Source: an uncultured Candidatus Saccharibacteria bacterium (lineage in GTDB: Bacteria; Patescibacteriota; Doudnabacteria; UBA920). Taken from it: a stretch of 64,000 nt of DNA. The DNA is taken from assembly GCA_964532005.1 (NCBI GenBank), contig CAZHER010000001.1, positions 55,502 to 119,501 of the forward strand. Reading direction: 5' to 3'. This document shows positions 4,789 to 63,776 of this stretch, piece by piece (positions within the stretch are counted from its first letter, which is position 1; every line of letters starts with the position of its first letter). The position numbers and the translations under genes were made by a program. Under the pieces are notes generated by a model. The model saw only the letters and a program-made list of their open reading frames with translations, ran no database searches and was not told where the DNA came from.

Positions 4789-5247
4789 ATGCAATATAAT
4801 GTTCCCCAATTTACTGATGTAGAAGACAAGCTGGTAGCCGGCTTGGGATTTAAGCAGTTTGGGATCTTGTTCGGAGTAGGGGTCCTGATGTTTTTAACTT
4901 GGAACATTACAAAAAGCGTAGCTTTGCTAATTATTGTTGGCGTATTTTTAGGACTTCCTGCTTTGGCCATAGTGTTTATTAAGGTTAACGGGCGTCCTTT
5001 ATACAATTCGTTGTTTGCCTTGGCAGGTTCCGCTTTTGAAGCAAAACATTTTGTTTTTCACAAGCAGGGCATGACGTTGGCCGAAAATAAAGAGACTGCG
5101 GTAATTAAAGAAGAGACGCCAGCCCAAGCCACTGGCACGGCAATGGTAAGAATAAAACAGCTAAATTATTTGTTACAGCAACAAGCATCAGAAGAACAAC
5201 TGCTCATTCAACATATAGCAGATGGAAACAAAACAAAAGAAACATAA
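4789..5247 (+). CDS. PrgI/TcpE-family (VirB3-like) small membrane protein
   Basis: About 150 aa with two adjacent TM helices (GILFGVGVLMFLTW... LLIIVGVFLGLPALAIVFI) directly upstream of VirB4. It has the size, topology and position of PrgI/VirB3. RBS GAGGGGA sits upstream of the ATG. Confidence 0.55.
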   Translation: MQYNVPQFTDVEDKLVAGLGFKQFGILFGVGVLMFLTWNITKSVALLIIVGVFLGLPALAIVFIKVNGRPLYNSLFALAGSAFEAKHFVFHKQGMTLAENKETAVIKEETPAQATGTAMVRIKQLNYLLQQQASEEQLLIQHIADGNKTKET

Positions 5248-23597: not shown

Positions 23598-23671
23598 TGT
23601 GTTTAATTAATTTTAATGACTAAGCCAGTAAATCTAGTATATCATGTTAGGGAAAAGATATAAAAATTTGT

Positions 23672-23700
23672 TTGACAAACATCTCCCCTGTAAGTATAAT
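23672..23700 (+). promoter_or_regulatory. consensus sigma70 promoter (TTGACA-17 nt-TATAAT)
   Basis: Exact TTGACA at 23672-23677, a 17-nt spacer and exact TATAAT at 23695-23700 on the + strand. No ORF with an RBS follows for ~250 nt. Confidence 0.6.
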
Positions 23701-23706
23701 ATCTTT

Positions 23707-23879
23707 AATATGTTCAATTTTGCTATTCAAGCCATTTCTATCCGTCCAATTTTGACCAAGAATATTGGTCTCCTTGCAGATGGCCTAAGAGTAGCAAAAA
23801 TTACTACATAGAACATAAATCTTCTATATAAACGTAAAACCGCTACTAGGGCCAAGCCACAGCAGCGGTTTTTCTTTTG
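23707..23879 (+). ncRNA. candidate small RNA transcription unit (consensus promoter to intrinsic terminator, ~170 nt), identity unknown
   Basis: Bounded by the consensus promoter at 23672-23700 and the hairpin ccgctact/agcagcgg plus T-run at 23840-23879. The only internal ORF (33 codons) lacks an RBS. Confidence 0.35.
23840..23879 (+). terminator. rho-independent terminator-like hairpin with T-run
   Basis: ccgctact..(13-nt loop)..agcagcgg forms an 8-bp stem with one mismatch, followed by tttttctttt. Confidence 0.5.
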
Positions 23880-23955
23880 TAAGGAAGAAATTCTGAGCAA
23901 ACCGGCTATTTATAGCCAAAAAGAACAAGGGGGAATACTAACATAAGGAGACGTT

Positions 23956-24132
23956 ATGGACGGACATCATTGGTTAGAAAAGTTTCCGGGCAGCAGAAGC
24001 GCGGAATCCAAGAACAGTGAGCCCGAAGCTGTGGAAGAAACTCCGGCAGCTGAGGAAAACAAGGTGGAAAGCACGGTTCCGCAACACCGTTCTTTCTTTG
24101 GCGACCCTGACACAAATTGGGGCATGGAATAA
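23956..24132 (+). CDS. small acidic hypothetical protein (58 aa) in a GC-rich island
   Basis: AAGGAG RBS 5 nt upstream of the ATG. The ORF is missing from the supplied track (below the length cutoff). Local GC is clearly above background. Confidence 0.35.
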   Translation: MDGHHWLEKFPGSRSAESKNSEPEAVEETPAAEENKVESTVPQHRSFFGDPDTNWGME

Positions 24133-24165
24133 CAACTTCGGTTGAATAAAGAGGAGAGAGATTGT

Positions 24166-24405
24166 ATGGATGAAAAATTGCCGCTTGGATTTGTGGTCCA
24201 CAAAAGCCACAAAACCTTCTACGACACACCATCAGGTGCAAGAGGTTATAATCAACCTCGGCTTCGATGCAGGTGTTGTCGAAAAACCGGGCTCGGATTA
24301 AAATTTGCTTGCAAAAAAGCAACAGAGATCCAGCCTGTCCAGCCGCCGAGCAGCCAGCTCAATGAAACCGCCGAAAATGCCACAGCGATCGCCGTGGCAT
24401 TATAA
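24166..24405 (+). CDS. small Cys-rich hypothetical protein (79 aa; CRCCRKTGLGLKFACKK) in a GC-rich island
   Basis: GAGGAG RBS 7-9 nt upstream of the ATG at 24166. The track lists the longer TTG-initiated form (24142..24405). A terminator follows. Confidence 0.4.
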   Translation: MDEKLPLGFVVHKSHKTFYDTPSGARGYNQPRLRCRCCRKTGLGLKFACKKATEIQPVQPPSSQLNETAENATAIAVAL

Positions 24406-24425
24406 GCTCCCTAAATAACTACATT

Positions 24426-24474
24426 AGCGCAACAAGTTTACTCCCACGTAATACTTTTGCGCTTTTTTTTTTTT
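24426..24474 (+). terminator. rho-independent terminator (7-bp stem agcgcaa/ttgcgct, long loop, T11)
   Basis: The stem is followed by a run of 11 T residues just upstream of gatC. Confidence 0.5.
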
Positions 24475-24499
24475 GCTTTTATTTATATATAATTAGTTC

Positions 24500-24781
24500 A
24501 TGTTAACTGATGAAGAGGTATTAAAAATAGCAGATCTAGCACGTATCGAATTACAGCCGGAAGAAGTAGAAAAGTTCAAAGCCGGACTTTCTACGGTTTT
24601 AGATTATGTTGCCGATTTGCAAAAAGTAGATACTGAACATTTGGAAATTGTAAGTTCGGTTACCGGGTTGGAAAATATTCAACGGGAGGATGCTCCGATA
24701 GTAGCCGAAAACAGGGGTCAAATTTTGTCCGGGGCCCCAGAAACCAAAGATGGGCTGTATAAAGTTAAATCAATTTTGTAA
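24500..24781 (+). CDS. gatC: Asp-tRNA(Asn)/Glu-tRNA(Gln) amidotransferase subunit C
   Basis: 93 aa with GatC-like sequence, immediately upstream of gatA and gatB. Confidence 0.85.
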   Translation: MLTDEEVLKIADLARIELQPEEVEKFKAGLSTVLDYVADLQKVDTEHLEIVSSVTGLENIQREDAPIVAENRGQILSGAPETKDGLYKVKSIL

Positions 24782-55725: not shown

Positions 55726-56382
55726 TCAGACGCGGAACAGGGCAAATGCCAAGCATTCTGCAAGGTGTGGGTTGACATCGCCTTTGGTAAGAGCGATGTA
55801 CAGGTCGGCGAACGAAGCCCAAAATTCGTTATTGAGATTGCCGCCCTTGTAGGCATTAACCTCTTTTTTCTTGTATAGAACGCCGATCCGATTGGTTTTG
55901 TTGTGGTAACGCCCGCCATCTGCAGGCATAATACCCCAACTCACCCATTCGTTCCCATAGAGTTCTGCTCGCGGTGGCAGTTTGCCACCATGTGCTGCTC
56001 TCAAGTTGCTTTCGCTTGCCTGAAGAGTTGGACCAAGCAGAATGTGGTTTTTGTCGTAAGGGTTTCCCGGCTCTTCACGGGCGGTTACCAGACAGTGATG
56101 CCCATCTGTTACGAGAACCAGCACCCCTGGACCAGTCGTATCTTCCAGCATCGGCTGGTTCCACTCTGCAACTTCTCGGCTCCCGGTCTGGACATAAAAC
56201 CCTGCCAAGCGGAAAAACTTTCCATCGCTTCGGCTGTATTCCCACCGTCCGTCGTTGTTTCTGTATGCCCACGGCTCAATACCATCGAGCGAGCCTGGGC
56301 TTACAACCATTGTTGAATTGGCTCTTTGTTCTTCGAGCCATTTTTCCAATTGTGTTTTCATTATTACTGCAATTTCCTCCAA
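55726..56382 (-). CDS. single-domain NDP-hexose 2,3-dehydratase-like protein (Hexose_dehydrat family), GC-rich, likely horizontally acquired
   Basis: The motif REEPGNPYDKNHILLGPTLQASESNL resembles the conserved K/RxEPGN...PT.Q...SN core of EvaA/TylX3-type dehydratases. Local GC is well above neighbours. The start could instead be the ATG at 56361 (GGAGG upstream). Confidence 0.45.
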   Translation of the reverse strand: MEEIAVIMKTQLEKWLEEQRANSTMVVSPGSLDGIEPWAYRNNDGRWEYSRSDGKFFRLAGFYVQTGSREVAEWNQPMLEDTTGPGVLVLVTDGHHCLVTAREEPGNPYDKNHILLGPTLQASESNLRAAHGGKLPPRAELYGNEWVSWGIMPADGGRYHNKTNRIGVLYKKKEVNAYKGGNLNNEFWASFADLYIALTKGDVNPHLAECLAFALFRV

Positions 56383-61530: not shown

Positions 61531-61767
61531 TCATGGTTGAAAAGGGCAGAATTCAGGTTTTACAAGGGTTTCGGGTAGATTTTTGGCCAACTTCCTTAAG
61601 GAAATGGACAGAAATGTGCCCGGCATTCGCGCCGCGGCCTATACGTGTAGGCCGTGAGCGCAAGCTCAACGGCACGTAAGATATAAACGTTAACAGCAAA
61701 ACGTTTCTGGTTTTTTGACAAAGATGACCAATGCTGAGGTCGTCAGATGGATTGGAGGATCCAAAAA
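61531..61767 (+). promoter_or_regulatory. long (~240 nt) GC-rich structured 5' leader with an internal terminator-like hairpin (candidate attenuator/riboswitch, class unknown)
   Basis: Lies between the consensus promoter and the RBS/ATG at 61768. Contains the hairpin cggccta-tacgtg-taggccg. A 7-bp hairpin aaacgtt/aacgttt (61685-61706) is followed by ctgg and T6. Confidence 0.35.
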
Positions 61768-62565
61768 ATGAAAAAATTTTTCGCAACAATCGTAACATTG
61801 GCAATCGTTCTGTCTTTATTCGTTCCAGCCGTCGCACAGCGCGGTGGCACAGCTTCCGCGAAGACCTTTTTGGGTCAGGAAAAAAACGTTTCGATTCGGG
61901 TTGCCGGAGGCTTTGCCGATGGTAATTTGACCCGCCGTTTAGCGGCACAGGAATATCGAATGAAGTCAGGTAGCAAATGGGCGTTTACTGCTGAGGGTGA
62001 CGGCGAGGACTTTGTCATCGTCATTACCTGCAAGATTGTGAAGAATGGGTCGAGAACCCAGACGGACAATTTGCAGAAGGCAGTGAATAAGAACGCACGG
62101 GAGGAGATCAATCAGACGCGCCGGGCGACAGGCGAAGCAAAAGAAAACCTTCGCCGAAACATACCCCGTGGTCCTAACGGAATTCTCCGCGACCTCGGTG
62201 GCGAGCTAGGCGGTATCTGGATTGAACGGCAAGGCAACAAAAGAATTCAGCAACAGGAAGACAGGATGCAGTCGGATCGCTTTTCACAAGAACGCAATGA
62301 CGTAATTGTCACCGTTCAGTGGATCGTTCCGGGAACAACAAAGCCGACTCATGAATGGGTTGGTAGCGGTGTTTTACATCGTGGTACCCGTGACGAATTC
62401 GGGATTATTAAGACCAAAATCGCCGACAACACGTTGGCTGAAGATGGTCTGCCAGAAGGAACGGTCATAACTGACCGGTCCTATCAGGGCATTGCCGAGA
62501 TCGCTTTCAAAAGAGCAATCAAAGAAGAAGGCGGATCTTTCCCAAATCAAACAATCGGACGGTGA
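61768..62565 (+). CDS. secreted hypothetical protein (signal peptide), GC-rich, likely horizontally acquired
   Basis: GGAGG RBS 10 nt upstream of the ATG at 61768. Signal-peptide-like MKKFFATIVTLAIVLSLFVPAVA. Much higher GC3 than flanking genes. Confidence 0.55.
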   Translation: MKKFFATIVTLAIVLSLFVPAVAQRGGTASAKTFLGQEKNVSIRVAGGFADGNLTRRLAAQEYRMKSGSKWAFTAEGDGEDFVIVITCKIVKNGSRTQTDNLQKAVNKNAREEINQTRRATGEAKENLRRNIPRGPNGILRDLGGELGGIWIERQGNKRIQQQEDRMQSDRFSQERNDVIVTVQWIVPGTTKPTHEWVGSGVLHRGTRDEFGIIKTKIADNTLAEDGLPEGTVITDRSYQGIAEIAFKRAIKEEGGSFPNQTIGR

Positions 62566-62597: not shown

Positions 62598-63776
62598 ATG
62601 AAACAGATGAAACTAAGGGCGGTCATCACGATGTTGACTGCTTGGGCAATCGTTATGTCGTCGCTTTCGCCACTTATGGTGCGCGAGGTGTCGGCTCAGA
62701 CCAAGACTGCCGTCGTTGAAGGCGAGTTAGATCTAAATAAACTCAGAAAACTCAGCCCAGATGACCCGGCATACTACCGTTCGCCGAACGTGCGTTTTCT
62801 CTCAATGAATTTTAACAAGGCACAACGCGCGGATTTCACTTACCTTGTCGGTTCTTCGCCGCAGATTCGGGGTGGTGCAAAAACACAACCTCAAGCTGAC
62901 GAAGAGGATGTTCCGAACGACCGCGTTCGGGATATTGAGACAATGTCTAAGGGCATGACACTTTCCATTGTGAAATTGCCGACAGAAATGCCGGTTCGCG
63001 ATGCGGAAGGAAAGATTGTCCGTGCAAACGGCAAGGTTGTCATGGAACCAGTTATGGTTCGCCAAAAGAAAGGTTCGGGACAGTTACTCATGGTTTTGAA
63101 GTGTGCCAATTGGTCACGAGAGGTCGGATATGATCCGATCCCACCTCAACCAATTGACAACACCTGTAGAGACTTTAACCCAAACCCCACCCCGACGGCG
63201 AATCGAAACGATAAAGGTGAGATCATTTCCTATTCTTACGACTTCGGCTGTGGCAATAAAGCTACAGTCGCCGTTGAAGTGAGAAAAGAGAAAGAGGTTT
63301 GCAATTGCACTCCTGGGTCTTACACACCCACTCTTTTCAATCGCGGGAAGGGGGATGAAACCGCTAACGTGTCAAACATTGCCTCAATGAAGGAGTTGAA
63401 GAGCAGCCCTGCCTTTACGGTTAAGGAAGCTCTGATAGCTCGTTTCGGCGAAGCGACCATGACGAACGGCAAAGACAAGGATTGGGAGTTAATTCTCCGA
63501 GAAATGGATAAGTTCAAGCAAGGCATCGCAGATGTCCGGCTGAAATATTTATATCTTGAAGTTGACCTTTGTCCGACCGCGGCGGGAACGAACAATGTTC
63601 TCTTTCACGCCATTGCCGATGACGATCAGCCGCCGATCGTTAAAAAGCGGAATTGGGGAAAGATCCTTAAATGGGTCATTCCGATTATCGTCACGGTGGC
63701 GATAATTCTCATTGTGCGGGGTGGTGGAGGTTTGAAAAAGCCGATACCTATTCCACCGAGAATCACACCTCCGTGA
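62598..63776 (+). CDS. secreted Cys-rich hypothetical protein with signal peptide and C-terminal TM anchor, GC-rich
   Basis: AGGAG RBS upstream of the ATG at 62598. Signal peptide (MKLRAVITMLTAWAIVMSSLSPLM). About 10 Cys. C-terminal helix VIPIIVTVAIILIV followed by RGGGG. Confidence 0.55.
   Translation: MKQMKLRAVITMLTAWAIVMSSLSPLMVREVSAQTKTAVVEGELDLNKLRKLSPDDPAYYRSPNVRFLSMNFNKAQRADFTYLVGSSPQIRGGAKTQPQADEEDVPNDRVRDIETMSKGMTLSIVKLPTEMPVRDAEGKIVRANGKVVMEPVMVRQKKGSGQLLMVLKCANWSREVGYDPIPPQPIDNTCRDFNPNPTPTANRNDKGEIISYSYDFGCGNKATVAVEVRKEKEVCNCTPGSYTPTLFNRGKGDETANVSNIASMKELKSSPAFTVKEALIARFGEATMTNGKDKDWELILREMDKFKQGIADVRLKYLYLEVDLCPTAAGTNNVLFHAIADDDQPPIVKKRNWGKILKWVIPIIVTVAIILIVRGGGGLKKPIPIPPRITPP

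Follow-up and report, generated by a model that had tools for sequence, protein, structure and literature searches.

Two small open reading frames (ORF1 and ORF2) lie between lemA and gatCAB in a 64-kb stretch of contig CAZHER010000001.1 (64,000 nucleotides, nt, in all; hereafter the window), which derives from a Saccharibacteria-like genome of the Patescibacteria, and we favour, with some reserve, the reading that they are the protein-coding cargo of a lineage-restricted mini-operon controlled by an attenuator. The first-pass annotation had flagged the GC-rich segment that carries them (23940–24480). As we propose it, the unit would comprise, in order on the plus strand, a promoter (23672–23700), a further short frame, ORF0, within a four-segment leader (23710–23878), ORF1 and ORF2, each preceded by a Shine-Dalgarno (SD) sequence, and a terminator (24426–24474). 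The components of this reading differ in strength. ORF1 and ORF2 are very probably coding, and it is likely, from structural inference with modest covariation support, that expression of the cargo is controlled by the attenuator upstream. That this attenuator is ribosome-mediated is a more tentative proposal, to which we give slightly less than an even chance, and a role for the cargo in a translation-stress response seems rather unlikely. The leader, which the first-pass annotation missed, is the best-conserved part of the unit, and the interest of the locus lies mostly in it rather than in the two flagged frames.

Further lineages were found by using relatives of GatC as anchors and reading the DNA upstream. 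The leader is conserved to about the same degree as gatC and far more than the cargo. It is preceded by a sigma-70 promoter, TTGACA-17-TATAAT (23672–23700, plus strand), which agrees with the consensus at 12/12 positions and probably drives the leader and the whole unit. A perfect match to TTGACA-17-TATAAT occurs three times in the 64 kb, and if one mismatch is allowed there are seven matches against 0.57 expected; the same promoter stands ahead of the leader in L001, L084, L085, L087 and L089. Since no conserved promoter was detected between the leader terminator and ORF1, ORF1 and ORF2 would most simply be transcribed by read-through. The window has a single copy of the leader; an nhmmer search revealed no others there or in 91 loci.

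The first feature downstream of the promoter is ORF0 (23710–23811, plus strand), a near-leaderless leader frame of 33 codons (MFNFAIQAISIRPILTKNIGLLADGLRVAKITT) whose ATG is located 9 nt after the −10 hexamer. This frame is open in eight loci representing seven lineages, where it spans 33–39 codons from an ATG at a fixed position. Differences in ORF0 are distributed over the three codon positions as 44/53/80, the third position being the most frequent, and L083 and L084 carry an in-frame 3-nt indel. Isoleucine accounts for four to six of codons 4–22, a 3- to 4-fold enrichment over the 7% background (P 0.001–0.04 per locus, the loci not being independent of one another), with no tandem codon run. 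ORF0 is predicted from these sequence features to be translated. The sensing of Asn or Gln codons, as a link to GatCAB, was considered and rejected, as ORF0 shows neither an enrichment nor a strict conservation of such codons.

Four short segments in and behind ORF0 can pair in mutually exclusive ways. Segment 1 (23722–23727, plus strand; GCTATT, or GCTACT in relatives) pairs with segment 2 (GGCCTAAGAGTAGC; 23782–23795, plus strand), which also forms the 5′ strand of the antiterminator and ends 13 nt before the ORF0 stop codon (13–28 nt across the eight loci). Segments 3 and 4 (23836–23878, plus strand) form an intrinsic terminator, consisting of the hairpin CCGCTACT...AGCAGCGG followed by TTTTTCTTTT, with a folding energy of −18.6 kcal/mol and a z-score (z) of −3.6. 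The underlying sequence is repetitive, with GCTAYT present twice (segments 1 and 3) and AGYAGC twice (segments 2 and 4). The terminator hairpin is conserved even where C-G pairs have become U-A through changes in both strands, and the fold of the whole leader is unusually stable (z −5.4). In each of the four lineages folded whole, the unconstrained minimum-energy structure is 1:2 together with 3:4, and an eight-sequence consensus agrees with this, whereas RNAalifold applied to four lineages picked 2:3 instead. The 1:2 duplex is worth −7 to −16 kcal/mol and the 2:3 duplex −18 to −24 kcal/mol; in each of the eight loci the latter equals the terminator (−17 to −24 kcal/mol) in strength. When four lineages are aligned, 2:3 is 100% paired, with two of the five pairs in its GGCC arm altered on both sides (GGCC/GGCC to GAUC/GGUC in L084). 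The region thus contains what is expected of a leader-peptide attenuator, namely a conserved short frame at the 5′ end, a 3:4 hairpin with a U-run that excludes 2:3, and a 1:2 pairing that sequesters segment 2. A small hairpin, TTGTAAGGAAGAAATTCTGAGCAA, lies directly behind the leader terminator (23877–23899); relatives retain it with another stem sequence, such as GTGCCGAA...TTTGGTGC in L085 and L087.

In the mechanism that we propose, ORF1 and ORF2 would be transcribed only through read-through of the leader terminator. If ORF0 is not translated, or is translated as far as its stop codon, where the ribosome would cover segment 2, the 1:2 and 3:4 pairings would form and transcription would stop. 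Stalling of a ribosome partway through ORF0, in its Ile-rich middle, would instead leave segment 2 free to pair with segment 3, so that no terminator would form and the cargo would be expressed. Masking experiments in silico agree with this scheme in part. When segment 1 was masked, which mimics a ribosome early in ORF0, 2:3 became the minimum-energy fold in L084; in L083 the first 60 nt had to be masked before this occurred. Masking through segment 2 brought the terminator back in all four lineages.

Several observations weigh against a ribosome-mediated attenuator of this kind. In both the window and L001, masking of segment 1 leaves the terminator as the equilibrium fold, so that antitermination in these two would have to be kinetic. 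Classical leader peptides repeat one regulatory codon in tandem, which ORF0 does not, and most of its conserved residues overlap RNA that is paired in segments 1 and 2 or in an invariant CCAA/UUGG hairpin, so it could be an incidental open frame. Only seven related lineages stand behind the covariation and the counts are small, and we infer the transcription start, termination and translation of the unit from its sequence. A rival explanation is that the leader is a riboswitch-like or protein-binding attenuator in which 1:2 is the P1 stem of a binding domain, ORF0 is incidental or its translation irrelevant, and the basic ORF2 protein might autoregulate by binding to the leader. Switching between 1:2, 2:3 and 3:4 is equally typical of riboswitch expression platforms. 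Both the placement of the conserved ORF0 residues on paired RNA and the missing tandem codons would be natural under such a model, as would the finding that the peptide alters where RNA pairing is kept, for example from KNIG to KNIW in L089. However, the fixed distance of 9 nt between the −10 box and the ATG, a frame that remains open in all eight loci while tolerating an in-frame indel, and the excess of third-position changes speak for a translated frame rather than an incidental one, as does the enrichment of Ile, which falls precisely where a ribosome would have to stall. Moreover, no Rfam family matches the leader; a scan of 23700–24600 at E<=10 returned no riboswitch or cis-regulatory match. 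One related lineage, L086, swaps the leader for an ATG-TAA mini-ORF followed by a hairpin, again pointing to the involvement of the ribosome. We regard the riboswitch-like or protein-binding alternative as doubtful, though still as a serious contender.

The proposed ribosome-mediated attenuator resembles those of the trp, his and ilv operons, in that a promoter-proximal short frame lies over four segments that form either 1:2 with 3:4 (and its U-run) or 2:3, the stop codon of ORF0 is close behind segment 2, and one amino acid, here Ile, is over-represented in the sensing stretch. It differs from them in the lack of tandem regulatory codons, in a near-leaderless mRNA without an SD sequence and in the nature of the downstream genes, which encode orphan small proteins rather than a biosynthetic operon; regulation in the present case is predicted. 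In the attenuators of ermC, cat and ARE-ABCF genes, stalling on a short leader frame remodels the downstream RNA and switches on the cargo. Stalling on ORF0 would likewise remodel the RNA and turn on its cargo, although no stalling motif was identified in ORF0. The cargos of these attenuators are resistance genes, and the classic erm and cat systems free a ribosome-binding site rather than act on a terminator. As outlined in a preprint, leaderless short frames encoding polycysteine serve as Cys-responsive attenuators in mycobacteria (bioRxiv 10.1101/834739). In the outline given there, as in the model proposed here, a leaderless short frame opens a polycistronic transcript, and whether it is translated governs the expression of what follows; the present leader differs in belonging to Patescibacteria, in having an ORF0 without poly-Cys and in containing an explicit intrinsic terminator and antiterminator. 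Taken together, the unit is probably an undescribed but architecturally classical attenuator with an orphan pair of small-protein genes, one of which has a probable zinc knuckle.

The evidence that this cargo is protein-coding is strongest for ORF2 (24166–24405, plus strand), which encodes a basic protein of 79 amino acids (aa) with an isoelectric point (pI) of 9.5, contains CRCCRKTGLGLKFACKK, and is preceded by the SD sequence GAGGAG (24151–24156, plus strand) with a spacer of 9 nt, as read from the sequence; an AGGAG-type SD sequence is conserved in L001, L083 and L084. Relatives were sought by an index search and by a full HMMER search of 1.84 billion representatives, which together define a family of four members, the window protein and the relatives P0002, P0003 and P0004. 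Each relative is encoded directly upstream of gatC with another small frame in front of it, and besides the window the family occurs only at the lemA/gatC position of three further lineages (four loci), in L001/L002, L083 and L084/L090. Profile scans of genome, metagenome and viral contig collections returned no confirmed relative. ORF2 consists of a conserved core (residues 8–52) and a variable, low-complexity, Ala-rich tail. Between the window and L001 there are many synonymous changes in the N-terminal 50 codons, and pairwise core differences among the four lineages fall at codon positions 1/2/3 as 105/59/153, a pattern similar to that of gatC (108/45/241). Of the six reading frames, that of ORF2 is the sole one open in all four lineages. 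Judged by its relatives and substitution pattern, ORF2 is a real conserved protein-coding gene.

Evidence for ORF1 (23956–24132, plus strand; 58 aa, acidic, pI 4.6, probably disordered) comes from the maintenance of its frame. It is preceded by the SD sequence AAGGAG (23945–23950, plus strand; 5-nt spacer, likewise as read), and an SD sequence is present in all lineages that have a frame at this position. An SD-led open frame of 51–72 codons occupies this position in L001, L083 and L084/L090, and L086 has an ORF1-like gene alone, so that the SD-led frame is maintained in five lineages including the window. After shuffling, the probability that the frame stays open by chance is 0.016–0.06 per lineage, with a product of ~5e-7 over four lineages, and we infer from this that ORF1 is translated. 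Its sequence, by comparison, is fluid. Nucleotide identity across lineages is only ~30%, and substitutions are spread nearly evenly over the codon positions (132/115/140). ORF1 and its counterpart in L084 have in common HWLEK and a C-terminal RS[FL][FW]G...[WF]GME, but homology is weak (E 0.01 over six residues with L084, and nothing that aligns with L086), and the counterpart in L083 is not acidic (pI 6.6). The ORF1 sequence is barely constrained; ORF1 may be a disordered acidic peptide, perhaps one that partners ORF2, or its translation may be more important than its product. About 20 nt upstream of the ORF1 SD sequence lies a G-rich box that resembles an SD sequence, AAGGGGGAA (23927–23935, plus strand), but is followed by no start codon; the window, L001, L084/L090 and L086 all have it, and L085 has a degenerate form. 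In addition, 26 nt of ORF0 (23723–23748) are 73% complementary to the ORF1 initiation region (23957–23982), which may reflect long-range pairing or chance.

A structured non-coding RNA (RNase P, transfer-messenger RNA (tmRNA), the signal recognition particle (SRP) RNA or a new large RNA), with the frames being spurious, would account for the stability of the segment and for the presence of open frames on both of its strands. The fold of 23900–24480 has a z of −3.8 and that of the coding part from ORF1 to ORF2 (23956–24405) a z of −4.1, as against +0.19 +/- 1.26 (minimum −2.66) for 17 other 450-nt windows, and homologous segments reach −3.7 in L001 and −4.1 in L084. The homologous segment of L083, however, has a z of only −0.9, and the consensus fold of the ORF2 region over four lineages is weak (−11 kcal/mol) and lacks covariation support (covariation term +0.25). 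Known RNAs did not match either: at gathering thresholds Rfam recognised only three tRNAs in the whole window, at E<=10 its scan of 23700–24600 gave noise only, with no RNase P, tmRNA or SRP RNA, and ARAGORN found no tmRNA. This bears out the first-pass annotation, which had itself considered RNase P and set it aside. Substitutions in ORF2 are of the coding type, with amino acids conserved through synonymous changes, and its SD site is conserved, as is that of ORF1. Minus-strand frames of 122, 81 and 78 aa do overlap the segment, as had been stated, but none is conserved in related loci, where only the annotated frames are open throughout. We thus give the RNA-gene explanation almost no weight; the excess stability of the mRNA is real but lineage-specific and does not mark a conserved RNA gene. 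The relatives and substitution pattern of ORF2 and the maintained frame of ORF1 support the earlier view that these are genuine coding genes. The unusual stability of the ORF1–ORF2 mRNA (z −4.1) is nevertheless left unexplained by the attenuator model and counts against it.

The first-pass annotation listed a metal-binding peptide among the possible functions, and the alignment is compatible with this for ORF2. One His and three Cys residues, H15, C35, C38 and C49, are invariant in 4/4 members, giving the pattern His-x19-Cys-x2-Cys-x10-Cys, and hence four conserved ligands with the spacing of a zinc ribbon or zinc knuckle; the extra Cys of the "CRCC" motif is not conserved. The other invariant residues are G8, F9, V11, S14, G27, R32, R39, G42, L43, L45, K46, K50 and K51. 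Because Cys makes up only 0.4% of a proteome sample, the three invariant Cys with the His point to a single metal site, and we suggest that H15, C35, C38 and C49 bind one zinc ion in a putative zinc knuckle. The basic core might bind nucleic acid or the ribosome. The zinc idea draws on the residue pattern only, and other lines of evidence speak against taking it too far: AlphaFold2 models of ORF2 were poor (predicted local distance difference test, pLDDT, 53 with two sequences and 54 with four), a profile search of the PDB gave a DnaJ zinc-finger chain at E 0.33, and PF00684 was reached at best with E 0.045, in 1/4 members, neither of which is significant. The DnaJ central domain (PF00684) was accordingly rejected as an assignment, its score falling below gathering and ORF2 having a single CxxCRxxG instead of a repeated CXXCXGXG. 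The likeness to the CXXCXGXG zinc finger of DnaJ is confined to a CxxC knuckle with which a predicted beta-strand ends and to a further Cys and His, all invariant, whereas the GxG part is missing and the ligand set, in place of two CxxC pairs, comprises three Cys and one His.

The C-terminal tails of ORF2 cannot be aligned between lineages, yet they are repeatedly Ala-rich at the end. Cargo proteins of different families share such non-polar endings, namely AIAVAL in the window (24385–24402), ASAAVA in L001 (4220–4237), SAAAH in L083 (765–782), QQAAAAG in L087 (2350–2370) and QAFAATQ in L089 (1846–1866); they are reminiscent of C-terminal degradation tags, a comparison that we make as speculation. 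At the 3′ end of ORF2, before its stop codon, lies a near-perfect 13+13-nt palindrome (92% complementary), AATGCCACAGCGA/TCGCCGTGGCATT (24376–24401). The unit then ends in an intrinsic terminator (24426–24474, plus strand), a long imperfect hairpin (24426–24463; −14.1 kcal/mol, z −4.1) with a T-run behind it. Stem and T-run are as described in the first-pass annotation, except that the run comprises 12 rather than 11 T (24463–24474). Equivalent hairpins of different sequence close the unit in L001 and L083.

The first-pass annotation also offered toxin-like, bacteriocin-like and RiPP (ribosomally synthesised and post-translationally modified peptide) readings of the pair, none of which gained support, since neither ORF0, ORF1, ORF2 nor the alternative cargo of related loci has a significant match in Pfam, NCBIfam, PHROGs or PADLOC. 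One rival takes ORF1 and ORF2 for a toxin-antitoxin-like or inhibitor-effector pair in a variable island, the acidic, disordered product being the antagonist and the basic one an effector that binds nucleic acid. This would suit a small bicistron whose products have opposite charges (pI 4.6 and 9.5) and whose cargo varies between lineages, and the Ala-rich tails could conceivably destabilise the proteins. The idea is weakened by the occurrence of the ORF1-like gene without ORF2 in L086, which indicates that the pair is not obligate, by the non-acidic ORF1 of L083 and by searches of Pfam, NCBIfam and PADLOC, which matched no family of toxins, antitoxins or defence proteins. The only match in the family libraries, to a restriction-enzyme model, is noise (E 0.026), the near-unconstrained sequence of ORF1 would be unusual for a specific antitoxin, and no relatives were found in phages or plasmids. 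We consider such a pair quite improbable. Still less credence can be given to a RiPP precursor or bacteriocin-like secreted peptides. Although both products are small and lack known homologues, and ORF2 is rich in Cys against the 0.4% background, there is no modifying enzyme, maturation or export gene, immunity gene or peptidase within ~10 kb, and neither peptide has a signal peptide, a double-glycine leader or a leader/core layout. The conserved, Cys-bearing part of ORF2 is N-terminal (8–52) and the C-terminal tail variable, the reverse of most RiPP precursors.

In contrast to the leader, the cargo of the mini-operon turns over between lineages. The leader is found in seven lineages ahead of different small cargo genes, every one of which is SD-led. 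In L085 it precedes frames of 70 and 81 aa. The 81-aa protein was considered as an ORF2 homologue on account of a similar H-x18-CxxC-x9-C spacing, but hhalign gave a probability of <1% and it was not counted. L087 and L089 have the leader with a different cargo, proteins of 143 and 127 aa that are homologous to each other (E 1e-6). In L086 the leader is reduced: positions 2092–2190 hold a promoter, the ATG-TAA mini-ORF and a GC-rich hairpin with a T-run, followed by the G-rich box and the ORF1-like gene. On the contig that carries P0012, genes of 66 and 82 aa lie upstream of gatC. Leader and cargo are both absent from other lineages. L088 and L091 have no relative of ORF1 or ORF2, L088 having an unrelated SD-led frame of 84 aa; in L003 and L004 secA adjoins gatC; and in L005, which has the order RecX-HtpX-LemA-gatC, no more than 67 nt separate lemA from gatC. 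By this distribution the unit is an insert restricted to certain lineages, in which the leader is constant and the cargo changes.

The suggestion of the first-pass annotation that the segment was horizontally acquired holds in part. An insert of ~900 nt between lemA and gatC that is absent from the syntenic L005, together with its use of SD sequences and its raised G+C content at third codon positions (GC3), is consistent with acquisition, but we found no mobility genes nearby, no flanking repeats or att-like sites around the insert, no outside homologues, and no relatives of the unit in phage and plasmid collections. GC content had been given as far above the genome background, which is an overstatement: the value for the segment is 0.468, as against a window mean of 0.412 (standard deviation 0.032), placing it in the top 5% of 541-nt windows, and nine separate regions of the window attain this level. 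The GC3 excess is real (0.53 for ORF1 and 0.46 for ORF2, compared with 0.383 +/- 0.046 for 53 window genes). Both frames, both SD sites and the CRCC motif are present in the sequence as first described, and the two frames are already called as genes in NCBI/ENA data. Even a loose SD motif precedes only 9/53 window genes, in a genome largely without Shine-Dalgarno sequences, so that the SD sites of ORF1 and ORF2 are more conspicuous than could be appreciated initially.

A bolder reading of these data is that the conserved 170-nt leader represents a novel type of patescibacterial attenuator that senses stalled ribosomes, possibly responding to slow decoding of Ile, and controls interchangeable, fast-evolving cargo at a fixed site beside gatCAB, and that this cargo, including the His-Cys3 zinc-knuckle protein ORF2, consists of short-lived (Ala-rich C-termini) RNA- or ribosome-binding effectors of translation stress. 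We think this improbable as a whole. In Patescibacteria, whose genomes are tiny and whose known regulators are few, hardly any cis-regulatory RNAs have, to our knowledge, been reported. If the attenuator reading is right, a conserved terminator/antiterminator leader with a near-leaderless sensor frame would provide a concrete, testable example of attenuation in this group, and the locus would define a small His-Cys3 protein family as well as a site of fast cargo turnover. For annotation, ORF1 and ORF2 should be treated as real genes and not as an RNA gene, and retain the name "hypothetical small protein" rather than toxin, bacteriocin or RiPP.

The genes around the unit are conventional. Pfam identifies ClpC-like, RecX, HtpX (M48) and LemA proteins upstream and GatC, GatA and GatB downstream, and the closest GatA proteins among species-representative genomes, at 67–72% identity, come from metagenome-assembled genomes of Patescibacteria / Saccharibacteria. 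All genes within ~10 kb are housekeeping genes, which include those for RecG, a sigma factor, MiaA, DNA polymerase III delta′, RRF, RseP and ProRS. The neighbouring gatC (24488–24781, plus strand; Pfam GatC), which lies outside the element, has its own −10 box, TATAAT (24488–24493), and a leaderless ATG at 24500. Since the insert-free L005 has the same TATAAT-6 nt-ATG arrangement, the gatC promoter is ancestral and the insert lies upstream of it. Several window genes, gatC among them, start 6–10 nt after a TATAAT box and look leaderless. Upstream of the leader promoter, the minus strand of AGTATATCA (23636–23646) reads as an extended −10 element (TGATATACT); it is conserved in L001, L085, L086 and L087 and is probably the lemA promoter. 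Three other genes of the window combine a raised GC3 (0.51–0.52) with an SD sequence, at 55726–56361 (minus strand), 61747–62565 (plus strand) and 62598–63776 (plus strand); one encodes an NDP-hexose 2,3-dehydratase and two encode proteins without a Pfam match. They form a compositional class like that of ORF1 and ORF2 and may be acquired genes. The gene for a PrgI-family protein, a component of a type IV secretion-like system (4789–5247), is also among the few SD-led genes of the window.

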